A stretch of DNA of 64,000 nucleotides from an uncultured Candidatus Saccharibacteria bacterium (GTDB lineage Bacteria > Patescibacteriota > JAUYIX01 > CAYMIK01): assembly GCA_964390745.1 (NCBI GenBank), contig CAYMIK010000002.1, positions 26,866 to 90,865 on the forward strand. Direction: 5' to 3'. The notes beneath the pieces were generated by a model. The model was not told the origin of the DNA. It saw only the letters and a list, made by a program, of their open reading frames with translations, and searched no databases. Positions 7,454 to 33,131 of the stretch are shown here, one piece after another. The number at the start of each line of letters is the position of its first letter. The first letter of the stretch is position 1. Position numbers and translations under genes: made by a program.

Positions 7454-8674
7454 GTGTCTGAAACCATCATTACTTCTATTAAAGAAAAATCAGAAGGACC
7501 ATACCAAAAAATGAACGATGTCGACATGAAGCGACGTTTTAAGAAGCGACGAAGAGCGTTTGCTGGCCTCTTTGTATTTATTTCACTCGTAGTAGGTTTT
7601 ATCGGCGCCTTTTTGTATGATGAATTTGGACATCCGTTTTTTGCTTCCCATGGTCTTTTGCTGGGAATGAGCAATGGTGAAACTCGCGAGCTACAACCAG
7701 TAACTGTTGTCCAAAACGATGCAACCATTGATGCAGTTTCGAAGGTGAGCCCGGCCGTAGTAAGTATTGTGGCGCAATCTGGAAACAAGCGTATTAACTT
7801 TTTTAACGGCCAAGTGGGAACAACAACAGCATCTGGCTCGGGATTTATTGTGACTAGAGATGGACTTATCGCAACCAATCGTCATGTTATTGAAGACTCA
7901 ACAAAGATTTCCGTCATAACACAAGACGGTGGAAATTATGAGGCTAAGCTTATTAGTACCGATCCGCTCAATGACTTCGCGATCATAAAAATCGATAAAA
8001 AGGACCTTCCCGTTGTTGATCTTGGGTACTCCGACGAATTGAAAGTTGGGGAGCCAGTTATCGCCATCGGAAACGCTCTTGGCTCGTACACAAACTCTGT
8101 AACGGTAGGAGTTATTAGCGGAACCAACAGGGCCATTGTGGCGCAGTCAGAAAATTCTGAATCAGATCTTGAGGGTTTGTTGCAGGTGGATGCAGCCATT
8201 AACCAAGGTAACTCTGGCGGCCCACTCGTAAACATTAAAGGACAAGTAATCGGCGTTAACACGGCTGTCGACAAATCGGGGGAAGGCATTGGTTTTGCTA
8301 TACCGATTAATGATTTGCGACCAGCGATAGAAAGCGTGATCTCACAAGGTAAGATTGTTCGGCCCATGCTGGGAGTTCGCTACGTAAACATCACGCCAGA
8401 AATTTCTGCTCTGAACAAACTTTCAGTGAACAGGGGCGCGCTCCTCGATGGTGGACAAGGTGCAGAAAGTGGCATCATCGCTGGTGGCCCCGCCGACAAA
8501 GCAGGCCTCAAAACGGGGGACATAATAGAATCGGTCAACGGGCAAGAGATTAACGAACAAAACAGTCTCACGCGTATCTTGCAAAAGTTTAAGCCAGGTG
8601 ATCAGGTGGAAATTAAGTACCTTCGCGACGGCAAAGAGGCTTCTACGAAGGCAACCCTTAAAGAGGCTTCATAG
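7454..8674 (+). CDS. htrA: HtrA/DegP-family trypsin-like serine protease with C-terminal PDZ domain
   Basis: TNRHV (His), GNSGGPL (Ser), PDZ segment GIIAGGPADKAGLKTGDIIESVNG. N-terminal TM anchor. GTG start preceded by gggagga. Confidence 0.9.
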   Translation: MSETIITSIKEKSEGPYQKMNDVDMKRRFKKRRRAFAGLFVFISLVVGFIGAFLYDEFGHPFFASHGLLLGMSNGETRELQPVTVVQNDATIDAVSKVSPAVVSIVAQSGNKRINFFNGQVGTTTASGSGFIVTRDGLIATNRHVIEDSTKISVITQDGGNYEAKLISTDPLNDFAIIKIDKKDLPVVDLGYSDELKVGEPVIAIGNALGSYTNSVTVGVISGTNRAIVAQSENSESDLEGLLQVDAAINQGNSGGPLVNIKGQVIGVNTAVDKSGEGIGFAIPINDLRPAIESVISQGKIVRPMLGVRYVNITPEISALNKLSVNRGALLDGGQGAESGIIAGGPADKAGLKTGDIIESVNGQEINEQNSLTRILQKFKPGDQVEIKYLRDGKEASTKATLKEAS

Positions 8675-8745: not shown

Positions 8746-8766
8746 TGGTTGTCAGAAAGAAACTCT

Positions 8767-9639
8767 ATGAAGCCAACACTCTTTCAAATCATCCGATCGC
8801 GCTTTGAGCACCTCGTTGTTATCTTCTTAACGGTGACGCTCATTGCGGTTATTATCACGATTGCCACGACTCCAAAATACGAAGGGCACTCGCGTATTCT
8901 TGTTATCCAAAAACAGCAATCGATCGATGCTTTTACGGCATCCAAGTCTGCTGACTACATAGCTGGCCTCTTAAATGAAGCGGTGTATTCCAAGTCATTT
9001 TTTGATTCACTCACAAAGCGCGACACGGGCCTTGCGTCACATTTTAGCAGTGACCCCGATAAGCGTTCGAAAGAATGGGCAAAGATGGTGGACTCGCGCG
9101 TGGATTCTGGAAAAGGCATCCTTGAAGTAAAGGTGTACGATGCGGACTCGAAACAAGCACAGCATGTTACTGATCTTATCGTTGCTACTCTCGTAAGTGA
9201 TGGTGCAAGCTATTACGGAGGGAGCTCGGATATTTCGATGCGTGTTATTGACGCTCCATCGGTTTCCACAAAACCGGCTCGACCATCGTTTGTATTAAAC
9301 ATCGGTGGCGGTATTTTGGTTGGCCTTGCACTTGACCTTGTGTACATTTTTATTATCGATTTGAGTTTGGCTCGAAAATTGGAAGAACGAGAGTACAATG
9401 GCCGACTTCATGAAGAAAACGAAATTCCACAAGACATTGAATTCTTGGCAGACGGTCATGTAGCCGCACAGCCGACACAACATGTTGTTTCGGAAAACTT
9501 TGAAGCACTTACTTCCCTGAAGCCATTTGCTTCAGAAGATCAGCCAATGCAAACTCCGCCTCAAGCACAAACTGTTCGTGAGGTACCTTTGCCGGATGAC
9601 GCTGCTTCGAATATTCAAAATTGGATGCGAAAAGAATAA
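8767..9639 (+). CDS. Wzz/CapA-like polysaccharide chain-length determinant (polysaccharide co-polymerase), no kinase domain
   Basis: N-terminal TM + PKYEGHSRILV Wzz signature and a C-terminal TM (LNIGGGILVGLALDLVYIFII). No Walker motifs. The ORF-track start at 8749 is TTG. Confidence 0.7.
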   Translation: MKPTLFQIIRSRFEHLVVIFLTVTLIAVIITIATTPKYEGHSRILVIQKQQSIDAFTASKSADYIAGLLNEAVYSKSFFDSLTKRDTGLASHFSSDPDKRSKEWAKMVDSRVDSGKGILEVKVYDADSKQAQHVTDLIVATLVSDGASYYGGSSDISMRVIDAPSVSTKPARPSFVLNIGGGILVGLALDLVYIFIIDLSLARKLEEREYNGRLHEENEIPQDIEFLADGHVAAQPTQHVVSENFEALTSLKPFASEDQPMQTPPQAQTVREVPLPDDAASNIQNWMRKE

Positions 9640-9659: not shown

Positions 9660-11114
9660 CTAGCGAATATTTCGTAGGTGTTTTTGGTTTTGGAGCACAT
9701 GGAAGATGCTTCCAAACATCGCAAGGAGAATCCAGTACAGCGTTGTGTTTTGGTAGAGATTATCAAAAAAACTCACGAACATCATGCCTAATGTCTCAGC
9801 GAGAATAAGGTACACAAGTACTCGCTCCTTTTGTGACGAGGCTCTTTTGAGATATAAGATAACCTCCGAAGAAAGCATTGCGAAAAAACCAATGAACGCG
9901 GCAAGGCCTGCGACCCCAAGTTCTACAAGAAGCTTCAGGTAGTCGTTGTGCGCATCAAACGATGTGTTGATTTCGTTTTCAGCAAACTGAATAAAGGTTC
10001 CGCCGCCGTAGCCTTTCAGAAGATGTTCTTGTGCGGGTCCGAGAATAGCATTCCAAAACTGGAATCTCCAGGTAACAGAGGTATCGGGGTTTAATTGGGC
10101 TGTTTGTAAAAGCCTTGAGACGATCGATATTTGAGTTGGTTGAAATGACGTATAGGCCTGCAGGAAAAGCCCAAGGGCGACTACGGCAAAAAGAGTGCCA
10201 AATGCCAACACCGTGAGTCGTGCAAAGTGTTCACGAAAGAAAACTATACTCAAAAGAGCTACGCCAATTACCGCGTAACCCCAGCCAGCACGCGAGAACG
10301 TAAAGACCAGCAAAAATCCGTAAAAGAGAAACAGCACGCCGTAGGTTCGTTTATACAACGGAAAAAGAACCATGAGTGCCAGAGCAAGAATCATCAGGGC
10401 TGCAAGGTAGTGGCCAAAGAGTGATGGGTGAGCAAAGGTTCCGAGAATTCGATTGCTGCTGGCTTCATCGGCGAGACCTGTTTTGGTAATGAGCTGATAC
10501 AAACCAATCACCACGGGGGAGATGGAAGAAGCAAAGATGGCCGTAGTTATCGTGCGCACGTCGTGCAGATTTTTGGTGAATTCAAAGCCAAGCAAAAAGA
10601 TAACAACGTAGCTTGCAATACGTATGGTTTCGCCAAAAACGGTTATTGGATCGCGGGTAAAAATAATTGAAGCAAGTGTTGCCAAAACCAAAAGAGCGAG
10701 TGGATAAAAAACAGGAATGCGGAAAACGCGCGTACGTTTGTACAAAAGATAAAATATGCCCCAGCCAACAACGAAGATTCCAAAGATCGCATTGAGGTTA
10801 ATAATGAGAACATTTTGAATATTGAATGAAACGCGCTGTCCCAGCATGTCGATGAGCGGACGCGCAATAAGAAGGGCGATAAATCCAGCTTTTGGGCGCA
10901 CCACAAAAAGTGGCGCAATGAGTACCACGGCAAATGCTGACAAGATCTTTAAGATGTCAGCGTTGACTATAATGAGCACGGTGGCAACGATAGTTCCCAG
11001 AAGAACCAGCATTGCCGCAAAAAATTGTGACTGGCGCGTGGTAAGGCTTTGTGACACTAGATTCTTTTTACAGATAACGTATAATGCGGATATGAGGATT
11101 TTGCATGCCAACAA
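9660..11114 (-). CDS. O-antigen ligase / Wzy-type polysaccharide polymerase (Wzy_C)
   Basis: FTFSRAGWGYAVIGVALL and DAHNDYLKLLVELGVAGL motifs, with 10-12 TM helices. Confidence 0.75.
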   Translation of the reverse strand: MLACKILISALYVICKKNLVSQSLTTRQSQFFAAMLVLLGTIVATVLIIVNADILKILSAFAVVLIAPLFVVRPKAGFIALLIARPLIDMLGQRVSFNIQNVLIINLNAIFGIFVVGWGIFYLLYKRTRVFRIPVFYPLALLVLATLASIIFTRDPITVFGETIRIASYVVIFLLGFEFTKNLHDVRTITTAIFASSISPVVIGLYQLITKTGLADEASSNRILGTFAHPSLFGHYLAALMILALALMVLFPLYKRTYGVLFLFYGFLLVFTFSRAGWGYAVIGVALLSIVFFREHFARLTVLAFGTLFAVVALGLFLQAYTSFQPTQISIVSRLLQTAQLNPDTSVTWRFQFWNAILGPAQEHLLKGYGGGTFIQFAENEINTSFDAHNDYLKLLVELGVAGLAAFIGFFAMLSSEVILYLKRASSQKERVLVYLILAETLGMMFVSFFDNLYQNTTLYWILLAMFGSIFHVLQNQKHLRNIR

Positions 11115-12324
11115 GTTTTATTTTCCAAAGCGGGGAGCGGACCGCATCTTTTTTAATTTGACCGAACTCTTAGAAAGGCACGGCCACGAAGTGATTCCGT
11201 TCTCCATGCAGCACCCAAAAAATCTGAAGTCAAATTTTAGAGAATATTTCGTAAGCCAGGTGCACTTTGAAAATCCTACTACCATTATAGAGAAATTTCG
11301 CGTCTTGGGAAGGATGATGTACTCATTTGAAGCGCGCCGTAAACTTTCAGCGCTTCTCGATGCGTATCCGTGTGATATTGCACACCTCGAAACCATCTAT
11401 CATCAGATCTCACCTTCCATTTTGAGCGTCATGAAAAAACGTGGTATGCCGATTGTTATGACTGTTCACGACTACAAGCTCATGTGCCCAAACTACAAAA
11501 TGTACACGCAAGACGCGGTGTGTGAGCGATGCTTCAAGCACAAGTACTACAATGCCGTAACGCATAAGTGTATCCAAAATAGTAGCATTGCTTCGGTGCC
11601 CGTGATGCTTGAAATGTACTTCCACAAAATCATGAAGTTTTACGAACGATACGTTGACGTCTTCTTGGCATCGAGCGAGTTCATGAAGAACAAGTTGGTT
11701 CAGTGGGGTTTTGACGAGAAAAAAGTGCTTGTTTTGAACAACTTTATTGACACCTCATTTTTTACGGCTGGCAAACAGGACCAGGGCTACTTCTTATTCT
11801 CTGGTGGACTTGAAGTTGAGAAGGGCGTTCTTACTATTGCGCGAGCAGTGAAGAAGTCTAAGAAGCTCCGCGTTGTTTTTACGGGTACGGGTAACCTTGA
11901 AAAGTATCTGCATGAATTCGTTGAGAAGAATAGCTTGCATCATCAGATTGAGTTTCGAGGATTTGTTGAGCGCGAAGAAACGCGACGACTCCTTCAGAAC
12001 TGCACTGCGCTCTTGGCACCCTCTGAGTGGTACGATAACAACCCACTCACTATCATTGAAGCAACGGCCTGTGGCAAGCCAGTTATTGGTACGGAAATAG
12101 GTGGGATTCCTGAGTTGATTGAAGATGGGAAAACGGGATTCGTTATCAAGCCCGGTGACCATATTGCACTTGCATCGCTCATGGAACGTTTGGCGATGAA
12201 TCACTCCGAAGCCGCTGCAATGGGCCGAAGAGCACTTCGAAACTCCACGCGATTTTCGCCCGAAAAGCACTACAACGCCGTTATGTCGGTCTATAACGAT
12301 CTCTTGGCCAAGAAGGCTACGTAA
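11092..12324 (+). CDS. Glycosyltransferase family 4 (GT-B fold)
   Basis: MRILHANKFYFPKRGADRIF N-terminus. C-terminal EWYDNNPLTIIEATACGKPVIGTEIGGIPELIEDGKTGF (E-x7-E GT4 motif). The ORF-track start at 10822 is an antisense-overlap artefact. Confidence 0.85.
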   Translation: MRILHANKFYFPKRGADRIFFNLTELLERHGHEVIPFSMQHPKNLKSNFREYFVSQVHFENPTTIIEKFRVLGRMMYSFEARRKLSALLDAYPCDIAHLETIYHQISPSILSVMKKRGMPIVMTVHDYKLMCPNYKMYTQDAVCERCFKHKYYNAVTHKCIQNSSIASVPVMLEMYFHKIMKFYERYVDVFLASSEFMKNKLVQWGFDEKKVLVLNNFIDTSFFTAGKQDQGYFLFSGGLEVEKGVLTIARAVKKSKKLRVVFTGTGNLEKYLHEFVEKNSLHHQIEFRGFVEREETRRLLQNCTALLAPSEWYDNNPLTIIEATACGKPVIGTEIGGIPELIEDGKTGFVIKPGDHIALASLMERLAMNHSEAAAMGRRALRNSTRFSPEKHYNAVMSVYNDLLAKKAT

Positions 12325-12355
12325 GCGCTTCACGGGGCATTTTTAGGGCACGGTC

Positions 12356-12384
12356 TTGACAAAAACTCCATAGTACTGTATTCT
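12356..12384 (+). promoter_or_regulatory. Sigma70-like promoter TTGACA-17-TATTCT
   Basis: ttgaca at 12356-12361, 17-nt spacer, tattct at 12379-12384, upstream of the GT4 gene at 12438. Confidence 0.4.
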
Positions 12385-12437
12385 ACATGGCTTTCTCTCG
12401 AACTCGCCTCATTATTTGAATTTCTCCCAAACCTTGT

Positions 12438-13586
12438 ATGAAAATCGCTTTTATAGGCCAAAAAGGAATACCAGCAACTTACGGTGGCATTGAACGCTAC
12501 GTAGAGGAGCTTTCAACGCGACTTGCTGATCGTGGCCACGCGGTGTGGGTATATGTTCGAAACTACTACACGCCAGGAACCGACACGATCTACAAAGGTG
12601 TGTATCTTGTTCGAATTCCTACCATCCGCTCAAAGCACTTGGACACCCTTGTGCATGTATTTTTGAGTACGCTCGACCTTATTCGTCGAGATGTAGATAT
12701 TATCTATGTTCATGCGGTTGGTCCTTCGGCGCTGATTCCGTTGATGCGACTTTTGAAGCCGAGGGCGAAAGTTATTTCCGTGTTTCAATCGCGCGATGAT
12801 CTCCATGCGAAATGGGGAAGGTTTGCACGGTTCTGTTTGCGAATTGGAACCTGGTTTGCATGTAAGATGCCACACGCAACAGTTACGAGCAGCAAGATTC
12901 TTCACCAGTATGCCATGGAAAAATATCATGCTGACACCGTTCAGATTTATAACGGCGCACCGTCACCAAAAGAACTGCATGGCAATGAAATGGAACAAAA
13001 ACTTGGAATTACCCAGGGTTCGTATTTCTTGATGGTCACTCGATTTGTTCGACACAAGAACATTCACAAAGTTATTCGTGCGTTTAAGAACCTGAAAACC
13101 GACAAGAAGCTTGTTATTGCGGGCGGTGCGGTGTATACGGATAAGTACTACCAAGAGATTCAGGAACTCGCAAAGGGTGACGACCGTATTATTTTGCCAG
13201 GTGTTGTCTCGGGAAACAATTTGTGGGAACTCTATCAAAAGGCATATGCCTTCGTTCAGGCTTCTGGAAGTGAAGGTATGCCACTTGCCGTTTTGGAAGC
13301 TATGTCCTTTGGATGTGGAATTATCGCGAGTGATATTAAAGAGCACTACGAAGTTCTCGAAGAAGCTGCGCTCTACTTTGATGTAAACAGCGTTAGTGAA
13401 CTTACGGCATTGATGGGCCTGGCACTCACGCAGCCACAATCATTGTTTGAAAAAGGAACATTGGCTCGACAACGTGCACGAAACGTCTTTAGCTGGGAAC
13501 GAATTACGGATCAGGTTGAATGGCTTTTTGAAACCGTCATCAACGATCCAGAATCTGTAAAAGTCTTCTCAGAGAAGATTCGATAA
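12438..13586 (+). CDS. Glycosyltransferase family 4
   Basis: MKIAFIGQKGIPATYGGIERYVEEL N-terminus. C-terminal ASGSEGMPLAVLEAMSFGCGIIASD. Confidence 0.85.
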   Translation: MKIAFIGQKGIPATYGGIERYVEELSTRLADRGHAVWVYVRNYYTPGTDTIYKGVYLVRIPTIRSKHLDTLVHVFLSTLDLIRRDVDIIYVHAVGPSALIPLMRLLKPRAKVISVFQSRDDLHAKWGRFARFCLRIGTWFACKMPHATVTSSKILHQYAMEKYHADTVQIYNGAPSPKELHGNEMEQKLGITQGSYFLMVTRFVRHKNIHKVIRAFKNLKTDKKLVIAGGAVYTDKYYQEIQELAKGDDRIILPGVVSGNNLWELYQKAYAFVQASGSEGMPLAVLEAMSFGCGIIASDIKEHYEVLEEAALYFDVNSVSELTALMGLALTQPQSLFEKGTLARQRARNVFSWERITDQVEWLFETVINDPESVKVFSEKIR

Positions 13587-13629: not shown

Positions 13630-16600
13630 TTAGTAGTAGTCTGTAATTTGAACGCCGGTGTAGTAGTGCTGCAAGATTTGCGTGTAACTTCGGCCTTCGT
13701 TGGCTTGTTGTAGTGCGCCGTATCCCGAGAGGCCTACGCCGTGGCCATTCATTGGGCCAGGACTTGACCAGTGATCATCAACGGAAACGAGGTAAGGGTA
13801 TGCACCGGGAGTTCCGCCCCAGACTTCTTGGTAGCTTCTGGTTCTGCCATCACTTCGAGAGAAGTATGGAGTCAGCGCAATGGCACTGCGATAGGTAACC
13901 ATCTGGCCCTTTGTCTCATTTACTGCCTGAACGATGTGAGGCGAGCGTGATTCAAGACCATAGCCTTTGTACACCTGATCGCCAGAAGTGTTGTTGAGGT
14001 CAAAGTGTTCGTTTGCGTGCTTGCCACCGCGTTGAACATTGTAGTACGCGTACGTTCGTTCCGCGACGGACATGGTCTTGAGGTGTGTGTAGGTAGTGCT
14101 ATCACTTTGTTCGGCGATACCTTTGAGGTAGTCTTCCATCTTAAGTTCGTTGATTGCCCAGAAGTTTCCCGTAGAGCCACTTCGCCATGCCAATATGTTT
14201 CCTCGGAAGGTGTTGTCATCAAGTGACGTGTTGAAGCCTGGATGGTCGTGGTAGTTATAAACCTTCAGGATAGTGCCCGTGTTTGGAATAAAACGAACAT
14301 AGTCGGTGGTGGTAACATTTACACCCGGTCCCGCCAAGCGATAATAACTATTTCCACCTTCAACGGTAACAGTTGCAACGTTGCCTGATGCAAATGTACC
14401 CAAAAGTGAACCATCGCCACCTTTCACGGCACGGAATGCGCCATTTCCGGAAACCTGTACCTGTGATAACGCGGCAATACCAATCTTTATTGTGGGCTCA
14501 GAAAGGGTAGAGCGAACATGAATACGAATCGTTCCGGTTGACGATGGCATCCAGGCAACACCTTGTGCGGTCAGCTTGAACTGTTCAGTATAGTCACCGG
14601 TAGTGTCAGGAGCTTGCAGATAGAAGGTGAATGTTCCCGTGGCGTTTGGTGCAACGGAGGTTGAGTCCATCACTGTAGGACGGTAGTAAGCTGGCCAACT
14701 GCTGTCTTCAAAAGTTGAGTGTCGGTTTGCTGGGTTGGTGGTTTGGAGTGAAACGTAGGCATCGCCCGTATTACTCCAGGTTCGTGTGCCGGTATTTTTG
14801 TAGTTGAAAGTAAACGATGTTCGGCTTCCAGGTGAAACGGTGATCTCCGTTGCTGTCTGGCTGGTAACTTGGCCGTTGTATCGTGGAGTTACGGTAATGT
14901 AGAAGTTCGTTGTCGTACTCAAGACCGTTTGACCGGCAGACTTCATATAGAAGCTTTCGGTATAACTGCCCACCATTTGATCTGGCGTATTGAGCCTGAA
15001 ATTGAATGTTGCCGAAGCACCTGGCACGACATCGTGATCAAGAATATCAACGGCACCCGCAGGCCACGTGATATCTTGGAATGGTGAAACGCGTCCGCCA
15101 GGAGCGGTATATAAACCATCGCCGGCATGCCAAGTCTCAGAACCAATATTTTTTATCGTCAAAGAGAGGTCGCGGGAAGCGTGATCTTCCATGATAATAG
15201 TTTCAGGAGACTTTGCGGTAATCTGTCCTTCATATGGATTCAAGGCGCGTACGGTCAGGTCAAAGCTTGTTCCCGCAATCCACGTAACATTTTCAGCAAC
15301 CGCTTGGAAGTATTCTTTGTAGGTCCCAGCAGTTTTTGGTGCCTTGATGGTGAAATCAAATTCACCAACTTGGCCTGGGCGAACCTCCGCTGTTGTCATG
15401 CGGCCCGGTCGGTAGGGGTATTCTGTCCAGGTGGCGGGATCTTTGATGGCGGAATTCTTCCCTGGAGGGTTGTTGACGTTCAAGGCAATAAAATTGCTTC
15501 CGCTGTTTTTCCAGGTTGCGCTTCCGGTATTCTTAATTCGAGCCGTAATCTCTTGTGTTTCGTTGACGTCGAGCGTTGGCCCTGGGGTAACAGAAACCAC
15601 CTCACCCTTGTATGGGCCAATAACATTCACGTGAAGTGTAAAGTGACTGCCGGTAATCCACGTAATGCCTTCCGAAACGGCCTGGAAGCCTTCGTTGTAG
15701 ACCTTGGTAGTGGTTGGTGCTTTCAGTATAAATTTAAAGTAACCCCATTCGCCCGGATTCAACGTGTCGGGACTGCTCAAGAGCGTTGGGCGATACGAAA
15801 GAGGCCAGCTTGCGCTGTCATAAAATGCCGAGCTTCTGCCCGCGGGATCTTGCAAGTTTAGGGCAACGAAGTTTGGTCCTGTTTTTGTCCATGCTCGAGT
15901 TCCGATATTTTTCATCCAGATAGCGACGGTGGTTTTTTGCCCGGGCGCAACGTCAATATTTCCGTCACCAGGAAGTTCGTCAATTTGAGCTTTGTAGCGA
16001 AGACTTACGTGAACGTGCAGTGTAAATTGGCTGCCATCAATCCAGGTGAGGCCGGATGCCACGAGTTTGAAAGTTTCATCGTAATCTGCTTCGAGGCCAC
16101 GTGAATCGCGCATCACAAAACTAAACGTTCCAATGCCTCCCGGTGGCACCGATGCTTCTTTGAGTTTGGCTGGGCGATACGATGCGAGCCAGCTGGAATC
16201 GTAGAAAACGGAGTTTCTATTTGCGGGGTCGGCTGTTTGTAAGACAACCGCATTGGGGCCTGAGTTGCTCCACAGTGCGTCACCGGTATTTTTGATCTTT
16301 ACGGTTACGGTGTGCCAGTTTTTATCCTCGAGGTTGACAAGGTCGGGGACACTGTTCAATTCGGCGGCGTACGGGTTGTAGTCTCCATGAGGTGTTGCGT
16401 TTATTGCAGCTTGTGCACCGTTTCGAATTTCCGCTACATCAGCATAAAGATCCGTTCCTGGACACGAGGTGTAGTCAACGTCACGATGTCCGATGACGCC
16501 TGGCATATTTCGATCAACAAAGTAGCTGACGGTTGTTGGATTAATATTGTTTTGAATTCCCTTGTACCCAATAAAATTGATGAGGGCATTTTTTGTCGCA

Positions 16601-17574
16601 GTAGTTACTGTGTCGTTGTCATAGTTTCCAAGGACAGATATGCCAATAGAACCAGGGTTGTAACTCACAGAGCTTCCGCCCGATTCTGTTCGGAGAGCGT
16701 GTGCGCCAATAACGCCGTTGCCACCATAGCGCCCTTCGTAAATATTTCCATGCTCGTCTGCGACGTAGTTGTAACCAATATCTCCCCAGCCACGTGTAAC
16801 GGCATGGTATCGATAAATCCCACGAATGACTGATGCTGGATCGCTTCCACCCTGAGCACCAGCAGTGTGATGGATGATAAACTTTTTAGGTGCGGAGTAT
16901 TGTGGTGTCCAGTCCATGATGGATTCATCAGCGCCCCACTCGGCACGGCTAATAACCCGCGGAGTCGTTACTGCGCCCTTTGTCTGTATAGAGCTGAAAT
17001 TCATTTGCGGACCTGGGCGAGAGTCGAGGTAGTGTGCCTGAATATCTGAAACGATAGGAGTAACGGCTTGATTGCTCGTTGAAAGCACTGCCTTGATAGC
17101 AAAACTTGTTGCACCGCTGCTGACAAAATTTAACTCGCTAAAGTGTTCCTTGGTATCTGGATCTTGCATGTCTTCGTTTTCTGGAAGCGGAAGCCAGTTG
17201 CTTGTCACACCATTTGCGGTGGTCTGCATATAAAAGCTTGCATGTGTTCCTTGCGGCTGATCAATCTTCCATGTAACGGCAAGTGCGTTAAAGTTGTAAT
17301 CTGCTTGCACTTGACCAGTGGTAAATTCATGACTTTGTTCAAATGCAGACCCATTTTTTGAAAGTTGCAGCGTCGTGTTTGTGGCTCGCGTGCTGATGCC
17401 CGAGCTCGAAGATCCACCGAAACCCAAAGAGACGTCACTCACGGAGTTGTTCTGCGGTGCGAGCGCAGCTTTTGCGGTATTGGCAAAATGAAAATTTCCT
17501 GCCAATGGAAGCATGGCAAGAATGGCAACGATACCAACGAGAGAGTATTTTGTTTTTTCGCTCCAAACTTTCAT
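13630..17574 (-). CDS. Secreted modular peptidoglycan hydrolase: signal peptide + N-acetylmuramoyl-L-alanine amidase (Amidase_2/PGRP) + 5-6 tandem Ig-like repeats + C-terminal SpoIID/LytB domain
   Basis: N-terminal LVGIVAILAMLPLAG signal. Amidase_2 region (AEWGADESIMDW...FIIHHTAG...GWGDIGYNYVAD...HRDVDYTSCPG). Repeats of ~115-130 aa each carry W.N.G...P..R.S.F.DSSW...YRP. The C-terminus matches SpoIID (ERTYAYYNV...YKGYG...GHGVGLSGYGA). Confidence 0.85.
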   Translation of the reverse strand: MKVWSEKTKYSLVGIVAILAMLPLAGNFHFANTAKAALAPQNNSVSDVSLGFGGSSSSGISTRATNTTLQLSKNGSAFEQSHEFTTGQVQADYNFNALAVTWKIDQPQGTHASFYMQTTANGVTSNWLPLPENEDMQDPDTKEHFSELNFVSSGATSFAIKAVLSTSNQAVTPIVSDIQAHYLDSRPGPQMNFSSIQTKGAVTTPRVISRAEWGADESIMDWTPQYSAPKKFIIHHTAGAQGGSDPASVIRGIYRYHAVTRGWGDIGYNYVADEHGNIYEGRYGGNGVIGAHALRTESGGSSVSYNPGSIGISVLGNYDNDTVTTATKNALINFIGYKGIQNNINPTTVSYFVDRNMPGVIGHRDVDYTSCPGTDLYADVAEIRNGAQAAINATPHGDYNPYAAELNSVPDLVNLEDKNWHTVTVKIKNTGDALWSNSGPNAVVLQTADPANRNSVFYDSSWLASYRPAKLKEASVPPGGIGTFSFVMRDSRGLEADYDETFKLVASGLTWIDGSQFTLHVHVSLRYKAQIDELPGDGNIDVAPGQKTTVAIWMKNIGTRAWTKTGPNFVALNLQDPAGRSSAFYDSASWPLSYRPTLLSSPDTLNPGEWGYFKFILKAPTTTKVYNEGFQAVSEGITWITGSHFTLHVNVIGPYKGEVVSVTPGPTLDVNETQEITARIKNTGSATWKNSGSNFIALNVNNPPGKNSAIKDPATWTEYPYRPGRMTTAEVRPGQVGEFDFTIKAPKTAGTYKEYFQAVAENVTWIAGTSFDLTVRALNPYEGQITAKSPETIIMEDHASRDLSLTIKNIGSETWHAGDGLYTAPGGRVSPFQDITWPAGAVDILDHDVVPGASATFNFRLNTPDQMVGSYTESFYMKSAGQTVLSTTTNFYITVTPRYNGQVTSQTATEITVSPGSRTSFTFNYKNTGTRTWSNTGDAYVSLQTTNPANRHSTFEDSSWPAYYRPTVMDSTSVAPNATGTFTFYLQAPDTTGDYTEQFKLTAQGVAWMPSSTGTIRIHVRSTLSEPTIKIGIAALSQVQVSGNGAFRAVKGGDGSLLGTFASGNVATVTVEGGNSYYRLAGPGVNVTTTDYVRFIPNTGTILKVYNYHDHPGFNTSLDDNTFRGNILAWRSGSTGNFWAINELKMEDYLKGIAEQSDSTTYTHLKTMSVAERTYAYYNVQRGGKHANEHFDLNNTSGDQVYKGYGLESRSPHIVQAVNETKGQMVTYRSAIALTPYFSRSDGRTRSYQEVWGGTPGAYPYLVSVDDHWSSPGPMNGHGVGLSGYGALQQANEGRSYTQILQHYYTGVQITDYY
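14400..16330 (-). repeat. Intragenic tandem repeats, period ~350-390 nt (5-6 copies), encoding the Ig-like modules
   Basis: Plus-strand landmarks ccggtattt at ~14797, ~15150, ~15517, ~15907 and ~16287. The corresponding protein repeats are ~30-40% identical. Confidence 0.6.
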
Positions 17575-17717: not shown

Positions 17718-20120
17718 TTGTCACGAATCAATACTTGTAAAAAACTTCTTGCGTCTATACTTATTATATTCGAAATAGGTTTTTTTTCAATAGGTTTTGA
17801 GGCGGCAGCTTCGACACAAACTGTGGAAAAAGTCAATGCAGCAGCTGGCACCAATAATTACATAAACAATGAAGTGATAGTAGAGCTTAAAGACCCGAAA
17901 GAGTCTGTCTCTTCAGCTTCGAACACTATATTTACTCAAGTAGTCTCGGGATTTCGACCTATTGCTATGAATGTTCAGCGCGAAACGCATATTCGAAAGA
18001 ATCGTGGCGCGCGATTCTTGTTGCAGATTGCAGACGGAACGGACCCCCAGGTTGTTGCAAAGAAGCTTTTGAATCGTCCAGGTGTTCTTTCTGCTTCACC
18101 GAATTTTATTTACCACACGGCACAAACATCAAACGATACGAACTTTGCACTCAAGGATGATTTATACAATACCGGAAGTAACTCTGGGAGAACGAGTGAG
18201 ACGAAGGATGCCGACATTGATGCCGAAATTGCGTGGAATACCACAAAGGGCGCGGGGAGTGTGATTGCGGTCATTGATACGGGAGTGCAACTCACGCACC
18301 CAGATCTTGATGGCAATCTGTGGACCAACCCCGACGAGCCTTCAAATGATAACGCTGATGCACCTGACGGAAATACTTTTATTGGCGACACTAATGGCTG
18401 GGACTTCGTTTCGCATGACAATAATCCGAACCCAGCACCTTCGGGTGCAGAAACAGGCCACGGAACACACGTTGCTGGTATTGCAGCTGCAGAAGTGAAT
18501 AACTCTGCGGGCATTGCTGGCGTTGCGCCAGAGGCAAAGATTATGGTGCTTCGGGCTTTTGATGGAAACGGAAGTGCGACAAGTGATGATGTCATTGCTG
18601 CCATTGATTATGCTATTCAAAATGATGCAAATGTTATCAATATGAGCTTTGCAACGGGACCAGGGGAGTACGACACGAGTTTCGATGCACCCTTGCAAGA
18701 TGCGTACAACAACAATATTGTTCCCGTAGCAGCGGCGGGGAACGACAATATTGATCTCAACAGTCAAAGAGTCTCGCCTGTAACGAATGACTGCGGTTCA
18801 ACGGATTGCGTCATCGGTGTTGCAGCCACGTCCAACGCAGACTATATGGCCTCGTACTCAAACTTTTCAAGTGGCGCAAACAAGTATGTTGATGTTTCAG
18901 CCCCGGGTGGTGTAACAGTATCGAGTCGTGCGATTTATTCCACCCTGCCGGGCTCAACCTATGGATACGAGGCTGGAACATCAATGGCGACACCGCAAGT
19001 AACCGGACTGGTTGCGCTTTTGCATGCAACAAACCCTTCTCTGACGGCCTCACAGATTATTTCACAGATTCGCAACAACACTGACCCCGCAAATTCTTCC
19101 AACATTGGTACTGGTCGAATCAATGCCGCGCATGCGGTGAATAACAGCATCATGAGCCGATTCGATGCGAGTGGAGGAAATCATTACAGCATCTCGAATC
19201 AGGTGAGCCAGATGCGGTTCCCACAAGATGGCACGGCAACTTCAGTGTTGATCGCTTCTGGGACAAATTTCCCCGATGCCTTGGCTGGTGGTGGTTTGGC
19301 GAAATCAAAAACGGCGCCACTTATTTTAACGAGTCCGAGTGGACTTAGCTCTTCTTCTCTTACAGAGATTCAGCGAGCGCTTTCGAATTCAACGAAGAAA
19401 ATTTATATACTTGGTGGCACGAGTGCTGTCTCTTCAAACATCGAGACGCAACTTTCTAATGTCGGCTACGCCAACACTGAACGAGTCGCGGGAGACGATA
19501 GGGTAGACACGGCAATTGCCATAGCGAACATCACAAATCCTTCAACCACCTCATACGCATTTGTGGTCAATAAAGATAATTTCCCCGATGGACTTGCGGC
19601 ATCGGCCATCTCTGCGGCCAAGGGAATACCAGTGTTAGTGAATGGCGCGGGCTCGCTTGATGCAAGAAATTCCAGTTGGCTCACAGCACACCATGTTTCG
19701 CGCGTTTTTGTTGTGGGCGGAACAAGTGTTGTGACCGATACCGTAAAAAATCAAATAGGTGCTTTGGGTATTTCGGTAACACGGCTCGCTGGTGCTGATA
19801 GATATGCCACGAGCTATGAAGTTGCGCGATGTTTTTATTCGACTTCGGCAACATCGGTGTGCAATGGTGTTGTGAGTTCGCGGGCTAAACCAAAACAGGT
19901 AGGATATGCAACAGGCATCTACTTTCAGGATGCACTAACTGCTGGGCCGTACATGGGGTACTATGCTGGGCCGGTTCTGCTGGTCTCATCGTCTGTTTCA
20001 AGTTCTGTGACGAGTTACGATGCCATGATTCAGGGAACAGCACGCGATGGATTTGTTTTTGGAACTACTTCGAATGTCTCGCCGTCTGTTTTGAGTACGC
20101 TTGCAGCGCAGTTGAAGTAA
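17718..20120 (+). CDS. Subtilisin-like serine protease (peptidase S8) with three C-terminal CW_binding_2 cell-wall-binding repeats
   Basis: Catalytic triad contexts VIAVIDTG (Asp), GHGTHVAG (His), GTSMATP (Ser). N-terminal signal/TM. C-terminus has three repeats of the FPDALAGG...PLILTS / FPDGLAAS...PVLVN / FQDALTAG...PVLLVS type. Confidence 0.9.
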   Translation: MSRINTCKKLLASILIIFEIGFFSIGFEAAASTQTVEKVNAAAGTNNYINNEVIVELKDPKESVSSASNTIFTQVVSGFRPIAMNVQRETHIRKNRGARFLLQIADGTDPQVVAKKLLNRPGVLSASPNFIYHTAQTSNDTNFALKDDLYNTGSNSGRTSETKDADIDAEIAWNTTKGAGSVIAVIDTGVQLTHPDLDGNLWTNPDEPSNDNADAPDGNTFIGDTNGWDFVSHDNNPNPAPSGAETGHGTHVAGIAAAEVNNSAGIAGVAPEAKIMVLRAFDGNGSATSDDVIAAIDYAIQNDANVINMSFATGPGEYDTSFDAPLQDAYNNNIVPVAAAGNDNIDLNSQRVSPVTNDCGSTDCVIGVAATSNADYMASYSNFSSGANKYVDVSAPGGVTVSSRAIYSTLPGSTYGYEAGTSMATPQVTGLVALLHATNPSLTASQIISQIRNNTDPANSSNIGTGRINAAHAVNNSIMSRFDASGGNHYSISNQVSQMRFPQDGTATSVLIASGTNFPDALAGGGLAKSKTAPLILTSPSGLSSSSLTEIQRALSNSTKKIYILGGTSAVSSNIETQLSNVGYANTERVAGDDRVDTAIAIANITNPSTTSYAFVVNKDNFPDGLAASAISAAKGIPVLVNGAGSLDARNSSWLTAHHVSRVFVVGGTSVVTDTVKNQIGALGISVTRLAGADRYATSYEVARCFYSTSATSVCNGVVSSRAKPKQVGYATGIYFQDALTAGPYMGYYAGPVLLVSSSVSSSVTSYDAMIQGTARDGFVFGTTSNVSPSVLSTLAAQLK

Positions 20121-20162
20121 GATTGTGTGTGGCAGGGTGGGGTTGTGTCATACAAAAATTCG

Positions 20163-20191
20163 TTGACAATTTGCCCATTTTCGCGTATGTA
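20163..20191 (+). promoter_or_regulatory. Sigma70-like promoter TTGACA-17-TATGTA
   Basis: ttgaca at 20163-20168, 17-nt spacer, tatgta at 20186-20191, upstream of the flippase/GT gene string. Confidence 0.4.
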
Positions 20192-20217
20192 TAGGGAGTT
20201 AACTTTGAATACATTTC

Positions 20218-21561
20218 ATGAGTGAACAGCACAAAACAACCTTTGGAAGTCAGGTGATTGAGCGTGTTTTTGTCGACGGATCCACGCTGGTGGGAATGTC
20301 ACTCATTAATATTCTTATTGCGCGGTCACTCGGGGCTTCAGGAAAGGGCGCTATTGCTTTGGCGATGCTCATTGCCAATATTATTTTTGTATTTTCATCG
20401 TTTGGCGTTCATCAGGCAAATAACTATTTCCGTGGTCGCAGAAATCATTCGCCAAGCGCACTGTACACAAACGCCATTATTTTTTCGATACTTATTTCGT
20501 TGGTTGCCGGTGGAATATTCTTACTGGTGTACCCAATGCTGGCTGATCGGTTCTTTTCTGGACTTCCCGTAAGATTTATTTTGCTTGCGTTGACTATTCT
20601 GCCCTTCTTGCATATTCAATCGAGCTTCACGAATTTTTTGCTCATTGAAAAAAAGCTTCGTTATTATAATGCCGTAAGTATTCTTAAAGTAGTTGTTCAG
20701 GTTGTATTGGTATATGTATTCTTGTTTCCGTTGCAACTTGGAACGTACTCGGTTGTGGCTGCATGGATTGTTGCGCAGGCATTCTTGGGAATTCTCACGG
20801 TCTATAAAACATGGCGCGCGCAAGACGCCAAGCTTTTGTTTCACTTTGCACTTTTGAAAGAAACCTTTTTGTTTGGCTTGCGCGGCTACTTTGGAAACTT
20901 TATTTATTTTATCAACCAGCGACTCGATCTCATTATGGTGAGTTTCTTTTTGCCACTCGCCGATGTTGGCGTGTATTCGGTAGCCTCAGCTTTGAGTGAA
21001 ATCTTGCTGCAACTTCCAGGATCTGTTACAACCATTTTGTTTCCACGAGTGGCGGCTACCACCGACGAGGATTCGAATCAATTTACGCCGCGTATCTTTC
21101 GAAACATGATCGTGATTATGATCCTTTTGGGCTTGGGCCTGGCGGTGTTTGGTCACCTCGTTATTTCCTTTTTCTTTGGTCCTGAATTTGAGCGAGGAAT
21201 TACGCCACTCTATGTTATGATTCCGGGTGTAGCGTTCATAGGGGCGGCAACGGTTTTAGGAAACGATCTTTCCGCGCGAGGTCGTCTCGAAGTTCATAGC
21301 TATATCGCGGGCATTGGATTGGTGCTCGATGTTGTTCTGAATATTCTTCTTATTCCACATTTTGGCTTGCTGGGTGCTGCGCTTGGCTCGACGCTGTCGT
21401 ACACGCTCATTGCTCTTGCGCTCATTGTCGCCTTCCGTGTTATTACAAAAGTCTCGTTTCGCGATATGCTTATTTTGAAGAAAAGTGATCTGGTGTATTA
21501 CGCCCGACTTCTTCACAAACTCCATCTTTTACCCGAATCAGTTGTTCAGAAACTCACATGA
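20218..21561 (+). CDS. wzx: Wzx-type polysaccharide flippase (MOP superfamily polysaccharide biosynthesis protein)
   Basis: About 12-14 TM helices and N-terminal GxSxxG-like segments typical of PF01943. It sits at the head of a glycosyltransferase operon. Confidence 0.75.
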   Translation: MSEQHKTTFGSQVIERVFVDGSTLVGMSLINILIARSLGASGKGAIALAMLIANIIFVFSSFGVHQANNYFRGRRNHSPSALYTNAIIFSILISLVAGGIFLLVYPMLADRFFSGLPVRFILLALTILPFLHIQSSFTNFLLIEKKLRYYNAVSILKVVVQVVLVYVFLFPLQLGTYSVVAAWIVAQAFLGILTVYKTWRAQDAKLLFHFALLKETFLFGLRGYFGNFIYFINQRLDLIMVSFFLPLADVGVYSVASALSEILLQLPGSVTTILFPRVAATTDEDSNQFTPRIFRNMIVIMILLGLGLAVFGHLVISFFFGPEFERGITPLYVMIPGVAFIGAATVLGNDLSARGRLEVHSYIAGIGLVLDVVLNILLIPHFGLLGAALGSTLSYTLIALALIVAFRVITKVSFRDMLILKKSDLVYYARLLHKLHLLPESVVQKLT

Positions 21562-22646
21562 AAAAGATTACCTTTCTTGCCGATGCCGGAAATGCACACA
21601 TGCAGCGATGGCTGACGGCTCTTTCGAAAGATTTTGAAATTCAGGTTGTGACCCAATCGTTGGATACAAACGTTCCAAAGAACGTTCAGCAGATTCACTA
21701 CAACATTCAGTTTTCAAGAAACCCTCTTTTGCGGCCGCTGCAGATTCTCCGGCAAAACCGAAAGATCCGAAAAGCTATTGCGGCATTTTCGCCAGATATT
21801 TTGCATGTGCATTATGCGTTAGCGCACTCCATCGCCTACGCACTACCAAAAAATATTACTACGGTAGTTTCATTGTGGGGTTCGGATATCGTGCCACTTC
21901 CGGGAAAAAATTTTTCCGACCAAGACTTCGCATACCTCGACTTATATCTTTCGAGAGCTACGCGTATTACGGTTACGAGCTCGTTTCTTGCGACCTACTT
22001 TACCAAGTTGTTTCGCGATACGTACCAAAAACCCACCGTCATTCCGTTTGGAATTGACACGGGGCTCTATGCTCCGATGCGCCGAACCAAGAATGTAGGG
22101 AAACCCGTTGTTGTGGGATTTGCACGGCAGTTCTATTCGCACTATGGATTTATGGATCTTTTGCAAGCTTCCGCGCCACTTTGCAAAGAAAACTTGCTAA
22201 CACTCAGGGTTGCGGGAAGTGGCGAAGAAGAGAATTTGTACAAAGCTGCCGTTGCCAAATTGGGTCTCCAGCATGCGGTTAAGTTTGTGGGGCGGATAGA
22301 AAACGCCTTTGAAATGCCAAAATTTTATGCATCGATAGACATTTTTGCGAATCCATCACACCGCGAATCATTTGGCGTTGCGGCGCTTGAAGCCGAATCG
22401 TGCGAAGTTCCGGTGGTTGCCGCAAAGACGGGCGGAATTCCGGAAACCGTAAAAAACGGCGAGACGGGAATTTTGTACCAAGTTGGAGATATTGAAGAGC
22501 TGCGTGCTGCATTGAAGAAATTGGCTGAAGACTCAAAACTTCGAGAAAGCATGGGGAGGGCTGGAAGAAAGTTTGTTCAGGAAACCTATGAGTGGCAAAA
22601 AAATGTTGAAGCTATGAAACAGGTCTACGAAGATGTCACAAAATAA
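21558..22646 (+). CDS. Glycosyltransferase family 4
   Basis: SHRESFGVAALEAESCEVPVVAAKTGGIPETVKNGETGILY (E-x7-E). 4-nt overlap with wzx. Confidence 0.85.
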   Translation: MKKITFLADAGNAHMQRWLTALSKDFEIQVVTQSLDTNVPKNVQQIHYNIQFSRNPLLRPLQILRQNRKIRKAIAAFSPDILHVHYALAHSIAYALPKNITTVVSLWGSDIVPLPGKNFSDQDFAYLDLYLSRATRITVTSSFLATYFTKLFRDTYQKPTVIPFGIDTGLYAPMRRTKNVGKPVVVGFARQFYSHYGFMDLLQASAPLCKENLLTLRVAGSGEEENLYKAAVAKLGLQHAVKFVGRIENAFEMPKFYASIDIFANPSHRESFGVAALEAESCEVPVVAAKTGGIPETVKNGETGILYQVGDIEELRAALKKLAEDSKLRESMGRAGRKFVQETYEWQKNVEAMKQVYEDVTK

Positions 22647-26310: not shown

Positions 26311-26347
26311 TAAAATCAATCACGTATGGCATAATTTTTCCGAACAT

Positions 26348-29138: not shown

Positions 29139-29150
29139 TTTTACGGATTT

Positions 29151-30359: not shown

Positions 30360-30390
30360 TTTTAGCCCCTTCCGTTTGCGAAAAAAGTCC

Positions 30391-30419
30391 TTGCACCTTT
30401 TTTAAAAATCCTGTATATT
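30391..30419 (+). promoter_or_regulatory. Sigma70-like promoter TTGCAC-17-TATATT
   Basis: ttgcac at 30391-30396, 17-nt spacer, tatatt at 30414-30419, upstream of rplI. Confidence 0.4.
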
Positions 30420-30461
30420 CTATTCAATAGTTCTAACCTTGCAACGCACGGATTTTCTTTT

Positions 30462-32554: not shown

Positions 32555-32563
32555 TCAAACACT

Positions 32564-32590
32564 AAAAAACACCGGTGATCGGTGTTTTTT
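32564..32590. terminator. Bidirectional intrinsic terminator between pyrG and the convergent phosphatase gene
   Basis: aaaaaacaccg-gtgat-cggtgtttttt. Confidence 0.65.
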
Positions 32591-33044: not shown

Positions 33045-33131
33045 GGGGGAATGATATCACGAAGGGCAAATGGGGACAATGTGCGAGAAAATGATGATAT
33101 AATCGAAGGCGTAAGCCAATGAAAGGAAATT

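Follow-up and report, generated by a model that had tools for sequence, protein, structure and literature searches.

The gene at 13630..17574 of the window (the whole 64,000-nucleotide stretch of DNA that was analysed) rather probably encodes a secreted bifunctional peptidoglycan autolysin, which would strip and then cut the wall while tethered to it by FW repeats. In the Patescibacteria bacterium that carries it, its job is most likely the remodelling of the cell's own wall, either in turnover or in daughter-cell separation. In the proposed scheme, a PGRP-type zinc amidase would strip the stem peptides off MurNAc, leaving denuded glycan strands. These strands would then be cut by a SpoIID-type lytic transglycosylase, presumably into anhydro-disaccharides, and five FW repeats, probably acting as wall-binding elements and as a spacer, would hold both enzymes on one wall patch. 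Such a fusion is logical: sporulation SpoIID accepts no glycan other than denuded strands and fails to act on peptidoglycan unless the amidase SpoIIP is present (PMC6221140; PMC6934232), and the amidase here would supply such strands. If this scheme is true, the wall would be converted to free peptides and disaccharides by one chain. The gene and its parts are as follows.

13630..17574, minus strand: entire gene of 1314 codons, with the stop codon at 13630-13632 (ORF list)
17467..17574, minus strand: residues 1-36, probable Sec signal peptide (read from the sequence)
16975..17457, minus strand: residues 40-200 (approximate), all-beta N-domain (beta strands of the AF2 model)
16390..16974, minus strand: residues 201-395, predicted Amidase_2 / PGRP-type zinc N-acetylmuramoyl-L-alanine amidase (profile match, conserved active site)
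14509..16365, minus strand: residues 404-1022, tandem array of five Ig-like repeats of the FW type (N_BRCA1_IG; profile match), each about 120 aa long, namely R1 (404-527), R2 (535-655), R3 (656-781), R4, degenerate (782-898) and R5 (900-1022)
14170..14493, minus strand: residues 1028-1135, beta-rich region packing on the SpoIID core (joint model)
13633..14169, minus strand: residues 1136-1314, SpoIID/LytB catalytic ('hand') domain (PF08486, TIGR02669, alignments, Foldseek)

Translation of 13630..17574 on the minus strand gave 1314 aa, identical to the database protein P0001, and in the ORF list the reading frame is unbroken over 3945 nt. It runs from the signal peptide through the N-domain, Amidase_2, the five FW repeats and the beta-rich region to the SpoIID/LytB domain. 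The original prediction had named two findings that would speak against it: a lack of significant HMM matches to Amidase_2 or SpoIID, which were in fact obtained (see below), and a frameshifted fusion of two genes, with the junctions 14300-14500 and 16300-16400 as the places to look. Such a frameshifted fusion is ruled out by the intact frame and by homologs from independent assemblies: in 119 of the 120 best homologs, drawn from NCBI, JGI, ENA and Logan assemblies, both junctions are spanned colinearly. Furthermore, syntenic relatives with 58% and 44% identity carry the same gene, of 1302-1314 aa. In one Limnocylindria MAG (locus L063), amidase and SpoIID lie on two neighbouring ORFs, so that an ancestral two-gene state does exist, and this would favour an assembly or annotation artefact in which two neighbouring genes were joined by a frameshift or a chimera. 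Given the 3945-nt frame, the colinearity and the same-length gene in the syntenic relatives, this reading was rejected and its probability is negligible.

At the N-terminus, a K-rich n-region is followed by a 17-residue hydrophobic core (YSLVGIVAILAMLPLAG) and an AKA/A site, as read from the sequence; a hydrophobic run within the first 60 residues is found in 105 of 120 homologs. A Sec signal peptide is probable, and secretion, which had been part of the original prediction, is likely from this Sec-like N-terminus. Residues 1-36 may instead form an uncleaved membrane anchor. The N-domain that follows (residues 40-200) matched no Pfam family in the profile search. It was modelled by AF2 as beta strands, with block pLDDT values mostly of 80-94, and stands directly before the amidase in all 72 of its occurrences, with or without SpoIID. 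This domain was absent from the original description of the protein.

The presence of an Amidase_2 domain, predicted earlier from two motifs, was upheld. Pfam Amidase_2 (PF01510) matched residues 227-373 with an E-value of 4e-13 (50.2 bits, gathering score 26), the domain matched PGRP chains with an E-value of 2e-18, and the region shows the alpha/beta amidase fold. Both motifs are present: HHTAG (H235/H236) and GHRDVDYTSCPG (H363...C371). In T7 lysozyme, the zinc ligands are H17, H122 and C130, together with a catalytic Tyr, and it is the Cys that separates catalytic from sensing PGRPs. As in T7 lysozyme, C371 stands 8 residues after H363. The predicted zinc ligands are H235/H236, H363 and C371, with Y268 and T369 as predicted catalytic residues. 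H235, H236, Y268, H292, H363, T369 and C371 were kept in 119-120 of 120 homologs.

The C-terminal SpoIID/LytB domain of the original prediction was likewise recovered, with significant matches to Pfam SpoIID (PF08486) at residues 1136-1228 (E 2e-15; 57.6 bits, gathering score 23) and to NCBIfam TIGR02669 SpoIID_LytB (117.5 bits, cut-off 83.3). The equivalog of sporulation SpoIID, TIGR02870, scored 82 bits, below its cut-off of 234.75, and where the sporulation enzyme has about 80 residues (203-283 in B. anthracis), the window protein has only 2, at 1275-1276. By its TIGR02870 score, the window protein is not an ortholog of sporulation SpoIID, and the substrate preference of its module may differ from that of the sporulation enzymes, since the 80 residues are missing and the TIGR02870 cut-off was not reached. 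Split alignments of the domain were obtained to 4rwr, 5i1t and 5txu. The beta-rich region and the SpoIID core were modelled as one unit (pLDDT 95.7, pTM 0.92; strands at model residues 6-123), for which Foldseek returned 5i1t (E 2.4e-15) and 4rwr (E 3e-11), with TM values of only 0.48-0.55. The SpoIID fold combines an alpha-rich hand with a beta-rich arm; the beta-rich region of the window protein is found in most family members and probably acts as the SpoIID 'arm'. Neither this region nor the loss of the 80 residues had been noted before.

The catalytic glutamate of SpoIID is E88 in B. subtilis and E101 in C. difficile. E1155 of the window protein aligns with the latter (5txu), assuming that chain numbering equals natural numbering. 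Together with R1173, Y1175, T1221, T1245 and H1278, it was kept in 119 of 119 homologs. In the original prediction, SpoIID was said normally only to stimulate or partner an amidase. This has to be corrected: SpoIID is itself a lytic transglycosylase, and amidase stimulation is a second, debated property.

Between the two enzymes, the five FW repeats share 25-42% pairwise identity and the skeleton KN.G...W ... P..R.S.F.D...W..YRP ... PG..G.F.F ... Y.E.F ... TW. Pfam N_BRCA1_IG (PF16158) was matched above its gathering score in 3 stretches (E 7e-20), and the repeats have an Ig-like beta-sandwich fold. FW stands for four tryptophans; the consensus here has two Trp that every repeat keeps and a third kept by four of the five. 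The earlier count of five to six Ig-like repeats was right as to type, which is the NBR1-like FW type, and is now set at exactly five. The wall hydrolases of this family carry FW arrays of 1-8 copies, and some relatives have other repeats at the FW position (CWB2 in L081/L082, LGFP in Actinomycetes), which are known or presumed to bind the wall. Most likely, the FW repeats also bind a wall component. From the typical size of an Ig domain, the array could space the enzymes by as much as about 20 nm.

More than 1000 homologs are detectable in this Patescibacteria family; conservation counts were taken over the best 119-120 of them, and the layout Ami-FWn-SpoIID recurs in 119 of the best 120. The two catalytic domains are the best conserved parts of the protein, with every checked catalytic residue kept in 117 or more of the 119-120 homologs, and the zinc ligands and catalytic Glu in at least 119. 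Both active sites are under strict constraint, their residues being kept in 119-120 of 120 and in 119 of 119 homologs, respectively. The proposal of one polypeptide with two predicted wall-cutting activities is supported. Its architecture, described earlier as unusual, is not rare, since it is the standard layout of a large family; that family is nevertheless uncharacterised, and the literature search found no published description of an amidase-FW-SpoIID fusion protein.

Other lineages combine amidase and SpoIID differently. Actinomycetes have the layout Ami-LGFPx8-SpoIID, whose SpoIID domain shares 52% identity with that of the window protein. Seven Chloroflexota loci (Anaerolineae) have the reversed order CarboxypepD_reg-SpoIID-Nd-Ami-Big_7, and the Limnocylindria locus has them as neighbours. 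Each half also exists apart, as Nd-Ami without SpoIID in 42 ORFs and, in 96 of 142 representatives, as SP-FWn-SpoIID lacking the amidase. In terms of sequence, the protein is a fusion of two such modules, one with signal peptide, N-domain, amidase and wall-binding repeats, the other with signal peptide, FW repeats and SpoIID. That the same two enzymes are coupled in several different ways argues strongly that amidase and SpoIID work together.

The window protein is best read as functionally like SpoIIP plus SpoIID and architecturally like Atl, built from different parts. Atl repeats form their own class of wall-binding repeats, whereas those of the window protein are FW/NBR1-like Ig domains. 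Otherwise, S. aureus Atl and S. epidermidis AtlE have the same part order: a signal peptide, an N-terminal pro/accessory domain (in Atl, a propeptide of unknown function), an Amidase_2-type amidase, repeats and a C-terminal glycan hydrolase, Atl being processed into two enzymes (PMC6262408). Both Atl and the window protein would turn the wall into free peptides and disaccharides, the glycan cutter being a GH73 endo-beta-N-acetylglucosaminidase in the former and a SpoIID-type lytic transglycosylase in the latter. Atl hosts are Bacillota, whereas the window family occurs in Patescibacteria, Chloroflexota and Actinomycetota. Outside the amidase domain, sequence comparison makes the window protein an analogue of Atl and not a homologue. 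The analogy with Atl was not drawn in the original prediction.

The same two-step chemistry would be expected as for SpoIIP and SpoIID (with SpoIIM) in Bacillus/Clostridioides engulfment, and the catalytic Glu is retained, as probably is the hand fold. However, SpoIIP and SpoIID are separate membrane-anchored proteins, sporulation-specific and held by SpoIIM, whereas the window has one secreted chain with an Amidase_2 domain, and its lineages are not known as endospore formers. SpoIIP comes from another family of amidases (PF07454), and the window protein has neither the 80 extra residues nor the TIGR02870 membership of sporulation SpoIID. No family match to SpoIIP or SpoIIM was found among the window ORFs scanned. 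In B. subtilis, LytC and LytB, products of the lytABC operon that each have wall-binding repeats, likewise pair a vegetative wall-turnover amidase with a SpoIID-domain protein, but as two proteins and with an Amidase_3 enzyme. Relatives of the window gene have CWB2 repeats on a second amidase. The SpoIID of Waddlia (Chlamydiales), likewise outside sporulation, is a stand-alone enzyme of the division septum, reported to depend on Asp rather than Glu, which digests denuded glycan and also cuts intact Gram-negative peptidoglycan (PMC6635528).

LytB raises the question of whether the amidase could be the only enzyme here, the SpoIID module being non-hydrolytic and serving to bind peptidoglycan or to stimulate the amidase. 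LytB has a SpoIID domain and is reported not to hydrolyse peptidoglycan, stimulation of LytC being its only reported activity; in one study even catalytically dead SpoIID still stimulated SpoIIP, and the window module lacks the 80 residues mentioned above. Nevertheless, E1155 and its surrounding motif are kept throughout the family, where a pure binding module would not be expected to keep a catalytic acid so strictly, and the hand domain, in a model of very high confidence, matches SpoIID. We therefore regard this reading as improbable. It is unlikely, to a lesser degree, that the chain is an Atl-like pro-protein, cut after export into amidase-plus-repeats and repeats-plus-SpoIID enzymes which act independently, with the N-domain as propeptide. 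Atl sets the precedent for such processing, both halves are stand-alone secreted proteins in related organisms, and a protease is at hand: a divergently transcribed, wall-bound S8 subtilase with three CWB2 domains is its neighbour, in syntenic position, in the window and in L081 and L082. This adjacency is, however, confined to the window's close relatives, and no processing site could be identified from the sequence. Conservation and a well-folded model set the N-domain apart from the usual disposable propeptide, and repeated independent fusion in different orders suggests selection for physical linkage. Cleavage of this kind would be compatible with the strip-then-cut chemistry and incompatible with physical tethering.

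About as unlikely as the pro-protein is a secreted host-directed or scavenging enzyme, which would breach or digest the peptidoglycan of a host bacterium or of dead cells, opening the way to the host or yielding peptides and amino sugars that the reduced genome is unable to supply. The window comes from a Patescibacterium, and the cultured members of this group are obligate episymbionts. For the CPR predator Vampirococcus, degradation of the host wall has been proposed as the role of secreted peptidoglycan hydrolases (PMC8080830). Moreover, no covalent or membrane anchor after signal-peptide cleavage is obvious in the sequence, full digestion to free peptides and disaccharides would suit a scavenger, and the envelope cluster holding the gene evolves faster than most of the housekeeping genes beside it (protein identity of 48-72%, as compared with mostly 74-99%). 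This divergence nevertheless affects the whole envelope cluster and is not particular to the fusion gene, and the same pairing is found in groups that are not known as episymbionts, namely Chloroflexota MAGs, with contigs or chromosomes of 2-3.6 Mb, and Actinomycetes. The genes around the fusion gene serve housekeeping or envelope biosynthesis, and its setting is not that of a mobile or weapon-like island; in Peregrinibacteria-type loci its neighbours are core housekeeping genes (TsaB-like, RsmI-like, RNase H, thioredoxin). No adjoining secretion-system, toxin or immunity gene was found in the neighbourhoods of the window and L081/L082, and the loci compared revealed no conserved partner from a division or peptidoglycan-synthesis operon. 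An own-wall role fits with the Chloroflexota and Actinomycetes members and with the housekeeping and envelope neighbours. Between the cell's own septum and the wall of a partner or host, both considered earlier, the distribution thus leans towards the own wall. Many Patescibacteria are episymbionts, and a host-directed role has to be kept in view.

Known FW domains (NBR1, ILRUN) are single-copy and intracellular, and those described from bacteria to date are XRE-type regulators (XRE-FW proteins). In contrast, the window protein family has extracellular tandem arrays inside wall hydrolases, of which the literature searched made no mention. It is conceivable, though a long shot, that the FW array is a wall-binding extracellular module of a new class, possibly one for stem peptides, in which copy number (1-8) sets the reach between the active sites. 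The fusion would then be a processive strip-and-cut machine and, in episymbiotic Patescibacteria, either the principal daughter-cell-separating autolysin or an outward-turned opener of the host wall at the attachment site. Recognition of stem peptides is suggested because the FW pocket of fungal Nbr1 binds a peptide terminus, the N-terminal peptide of a protein being the only defined FW ligand.

The hydrolase gene was an unbroken open reading frame of 1314 residues in the ORF listing of the window (13630..17574, minus strand), and a protein of identical sequence (P0001) was already present in public collections. A frameshift or a chimera was considered and is ruled out by this unbroken frame, by the colinear homologs and by two syntenic relatives of the window, L081 and L082. 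An artefact is effectively excluded, and the gene is real, not a frameshifted fusion. The three regions named in the original prediction were all recovered above the Pfam gathering scores: Amidase_2 at residues 227-373 (E 4e-13), SpoIID at 1136-1228 (E 2e-15) and the NBR1-like Ig repeat N_BRCA1_IG (hereafter FW) over three stretches (E 7e-20); in the same scan, CARDB scored below threshold. The domain-level NCBIfam model TIGR02669 (SpoIID_LytB) gave 117.5 bits against a cut-off of 83.3, and the protein was far under the cut-off of the sporulation equivalog TIGR02870 (82 vs 234.75). By its sequence, the N-terminus looks like a Sec signal peptide (AKA|A), and the 1314 residues include 27 Trp and a single Cys, C371. 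Promoter and terminator counts around the gene did not exceed those in shuffled sequence, and tRNA and Rfam scans of the whole window gave no matches.

Residues ~40-200 (N-domain) were all-beta in the model, with no Pfam match. In the fetched loci this domain occurred 72 times, each time directly N-terminal to an Amidase_2 domain of the window's kind, in ORFs with (30/72) or without (42/72) a SpoIID end, which marks it as an accessory domain to the amidase. The amidase itself is PGRP/T7-lysozyme-like, with PGRP sequence matches reaching E 2e-18, and its predicted Zn ligands and catalytic residues (H235/H236, Y268, H363, T369, C371) are kept in 119-120 of 120 homologs. Five homologs of the Peregrinibacteria type (P0021, P0024, P0039, P0059 and P0063) carry an insertion of ~50 residues between 'RYWTPE' and 'WPLQY', which splits the amidase match in two ('Ami-Ami').

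When the protein was searched with a profile made from one repeat, the Ig-like repeats were upheld, and their number, put at five to six in the original prediction, was exactly five, with a mutual identity of 25-42%:

Residues 404-527: FW repeat R1
Residues 535-655: FW repeat R2
Residues 656-781: FW repeat R3
Residues 782-898: FW repeat R4, YRP motif lost
Residues 900-1022: FW repeat R5

The middle slot is occupied by LGFP repeats in Actinomycetes and by CWB2 repeats in a second amidase of the window's relatives. Since this slot holds such repeats elsewhere, the FW array is a putative wall-targeting part and spacer. Outside this setting the FW/NBR1 domain is familiar from autophagy receptors of eukaryotes, and in bacteria the literature has so far described it in XRE-type regulators; the present family points to a likely extracellular role of the bacterial domain. 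An extreme version of the array is found in the homolog P0007 (1427 aa), in which the amidase is followed by eight FW repeats and by a C-terminus annotated PF26280 and PF14310; it is the only one of the best 120 homologs without SpoIID.

The C-terminal unit (residues 1023-1314) was modelled from an 18-sequence alignment (pLDDT 95.7, pTM 0.92) as two lobes packed together, one beta-rich (~1028-1145) and the other alpha/beta. With this model, Foldseek returned SpoIID proteins as the sole strong matches (C. difficile 5i1t, E 2.4e-15, TM 0.55; B. anthracis 4rwr, E 3e-11), and the transglycosylase SleC came next. The alignment to solved SpoIID was split in two, query 1141-1274 on 4rwr 63-202 and query 1277-1311 on 4rwr 284-318, so that ~80 residues of sporulation SpoIID are without counterpart in the window protein. 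We infer that the absent segment is part of the beta 'arm' described for SpoIID, whose role the ~100 residues before the SpoIID core may take over. With C371, the predicted Zn ligand of the amidase, as the single Cys of the protein, this SpoIID domain cannot form the Cys/His zinc site known from C. difficile SpoIID.

Searched by word index, a set of 5.8 billion proteins gave 1062 matches to the window protein (E<=1e-5). The best 120 of these came from Patescibacteria and Peregrinibacteria and are named 'N-acetylmuramoyl-L-alanine amidase' or 'SpoIID/LytB domain-containing protein' in databases; PF01510 was present in all 120, PF08486 in 119 and PF16158 in most. With our own domain profiles, the order amidase, FW repeats (2-5 detected), SpoIID was found in 119 of the 120. 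The architecture, first described as unusual, is thus not so within Patescibacteria. The window organism is itself a Patescibacterium, as its ATP synthase beta subunit is closest, among named matches, to the 'Patescibacteria group' (83%) and to Moran-, Falkow- and Magasanikbacteria (75-77%), and the window is ordinary chromosome, with genes for ATP synthase, GluRS, PriA and CTP synthase. In GTDB, scanned with one genome per species in a set outside which the source genome lies (best match 35%), at least 594 loci encode proteins related to the amidase part. The 80 loci kept belong to Saccharibacteria, Peregrinibacteria/Peribacteria, Gracilibacteria, Parcubacteria, Chloroflexota and Actinomycetes/Thermoleophilia, and both enzymes lie in a single ORF in 37 of them, as they do in L081 and in the window.

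The same pairing was also met in other designs. In an Actinomycetes locus (L029), Pfam placed eight LGFP repeats (E 3e-124) between Amidase_2 and a SpoIID domain 52% identical to the window's; the two ends are homologous, with an exchanged middle. Seven Chloroflexota/Anaerolineae loci have the reverse order CarboxypepD_reg, SpoIID, N-domain, Amidase_2, Big_7, with SpoIID domains 32-34% identical to that of the window. In L063 (Limnocylindria), neighbouring same-strand ORFs carry FW/CARDB and SpoIID, then N-domain, Amidase_2 and FW, and in the second ORF a signal-like peptide follows an internal Met; as the two ORFs overlap by 483 nt, the pair may be a frameshifted single gene. In L024, from a Patescibacteria SAG, a middle section of ~600 residues had no domain assignment in the Pfam scan.

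An exhaustive phmmer search of 1.84 billion representatives with the C-terminal unit gave 14,941 SpoIID-like proteins (E<=1e-3), of which 473 reached E<=1e-30; the unit was C-terminal in all of the best 150 matches. Among 142 newly fetched representatives, 96 were full-length proteins with a signal or anchor, one to six FW repeats and SpoIID without amidase, 27 had SpoIID alone and 19 had an amidase. Because FW-SpoIID proteins without amidase and N-domain-amidase proteins without SpoIID both occur, the window protein unites two modules that are also found apart. That the same two activities recur fused, fused in permuted order and on adjacent genes is comparative evidence of a classic kind that both belong to one process.

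SpoIID is inactive on peptidoglycan until the amidase SpoIIP has acted, and in Bacillus and Clostridioides SpoIIM holds the two together for sequential action (PMC6221140; PMC6934232); in Waddlia, which does not sporulate, the division septum is the site of action of a SpoIID homologue (PMC6635528). Since SpoIID needs prior amidase action, a covalent amidase-SpoIID fusion makes mechanistic sense: the amidase half would make in place the substrate that the transglycosylase accepts, the sole one in the sporulation enzymes. We thus favour, with some reserve, an autolysin that removes stem peptides and then cuts the bare glycan. In its overall layout the protein corresponds to S. aureus Atl, which runs from a signal peptide and a propeptide of unknown function through an amidase and wall-binding repeats to a glycan hydrolase (PMC6262408). 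A pro-protein of the Atl kind, cut into two enzymes after export, is nevertheless considered unlikely. That the SpoIID module is non-catalytic and LytB-like appears very improbable; E1155, which aligns with the catalytic Glu (C. difficile E101), is kept with R1173, Y1175, T1221, T1245 and H1278 in 119/119 homologs having the domain.

A further alternative is a host-directed or scavenging hydrolase. Cultured Patescibacteria are episymbionts, and secreted CPR hydrolases have been proposed to attack host walls (PMC8080830). Three observations speak for action on the cell's own wall: the family also occurs in Actinomycetes and in MAGs of Chloroflexota whose contigs or chromosomes measure 2-3.6 Mb; in loci of the Peregrinibacteria type the gene is surrounded by housekeeping genes; and in the window's lineage it lies within a surface-glycan biosynthesis cluster whose synteny is kept at 44% and 58% protein identity. 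We regard the host-directed or scavenging role as rather doubtful and retain the strip-then-cut autolysin.

Two-enzyme autolysins as a kind and the dependence of SpoIID on an amidase are established. In the literature searched, whose coverage leaves out most subscription journals, no paper joined SpoIID with Patescibacteria, and SpoIID and Amidase_2 appeared together in one, a B. subtilis hydrolase census. Repeated fusion, varied orders and linkers, and gene adjacency suggest that the pathway of amidase followed by SpoIID, familiar from endospore engulfment, is a general route of wall dismantling in Patescibacteria, Chloroflexota and Actinomycetota, and probably an old one. CPR peptidoglycan hydrolases are essentially unstudied, yet must govern tiny-cell division and host contact; the window protein offers a self-contained lysin with two predicted activities and clearly predictable active-site mutants, testable on sacculi.

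No conserved operon partner was found in the 39 loci with the fused gene. Their recurrent neighbours are lineage-specific housekeeping genes (TsaB-like, RsmI-like methylase, RNase H, thioredoxin, pseudopilin, CdaA), and the glycosyltransferase, Wzy, Wzz and S8-CWB2 context is limited to close relatives of the window. The window carries these envelope-related features:

5825-7441 (+), 8749-9639 (+), 9660-11114 (-), 11092-13586 (+) and 20218-27172 (+): surface-polysaccharide locus
7454-8674 (+): HtrA-like protease with PDZ
17718-20120 (+): S8 subtilase (800 aa; fervidolysin-like prodomain, three wall-binding CWB2 domains), divergent from the hydrolase gene
27138-29138 (+): DUF4012 protein (666 aa)
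29151-30359 (+): S41 CtpB-like protease with PDZ
45330-46532 (-): M23 peptidase (400 aa)

The polysaccharide locus is large for a small-genome bacterium and comprises two Wzy_C proteins (O-antigen ligase/polymerase-like), a Wzz-like protein, a Wzx/MurJ-like flippase, six GT4 and one GT2. A TTG-start ORF of 500 aa at 10822-12324 (+) is probably over-extended, since its GT4 match begins ~15 residues after 11092 and its first ~90 codons overlap the end of the opposite Wzy_C gene (9660-11114).

On a relative contig, ATP synthase beta was 99% identical and the hydrolase 58%, from which the idea of a hypervariable hydrolase started. Gene-by-gene comparison led us to reject it: the AtpD figure only reflects the strong conservation of that gene (88% DNA identity), and the hydrolase is not special in an envelope cluster that lies as a whole at 48-72%. 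Against contig DRR235453_2724, the envelope/glycan proteins of window ~3500-26300 were 48-72% identical and the housekeeping proteins of 29000-41600 74-99% (AtpD 99%, L27 97%), with an outlier of 48% at 33132-33797. The whole surface locus evolves faster than its flanks.

The synteny of the S8 subtilase with the hydrolase is kept in L081 and L082. This protease might have a part in processing or turnover of the autolysin, for which the wall-bound proteases of Bacillus offer a comparison. Between it and the flippase, both relatives have an extra Amidase_2 and CW_binding_2 gene of 650-669 aa (L081 5411-7363; L082 5379-7388), which has no counterpart in window 20120-20218. At the DNA level this extra amidase gene is 71% identical to window 16697-16956, within the amidase domain of the hydrolase.
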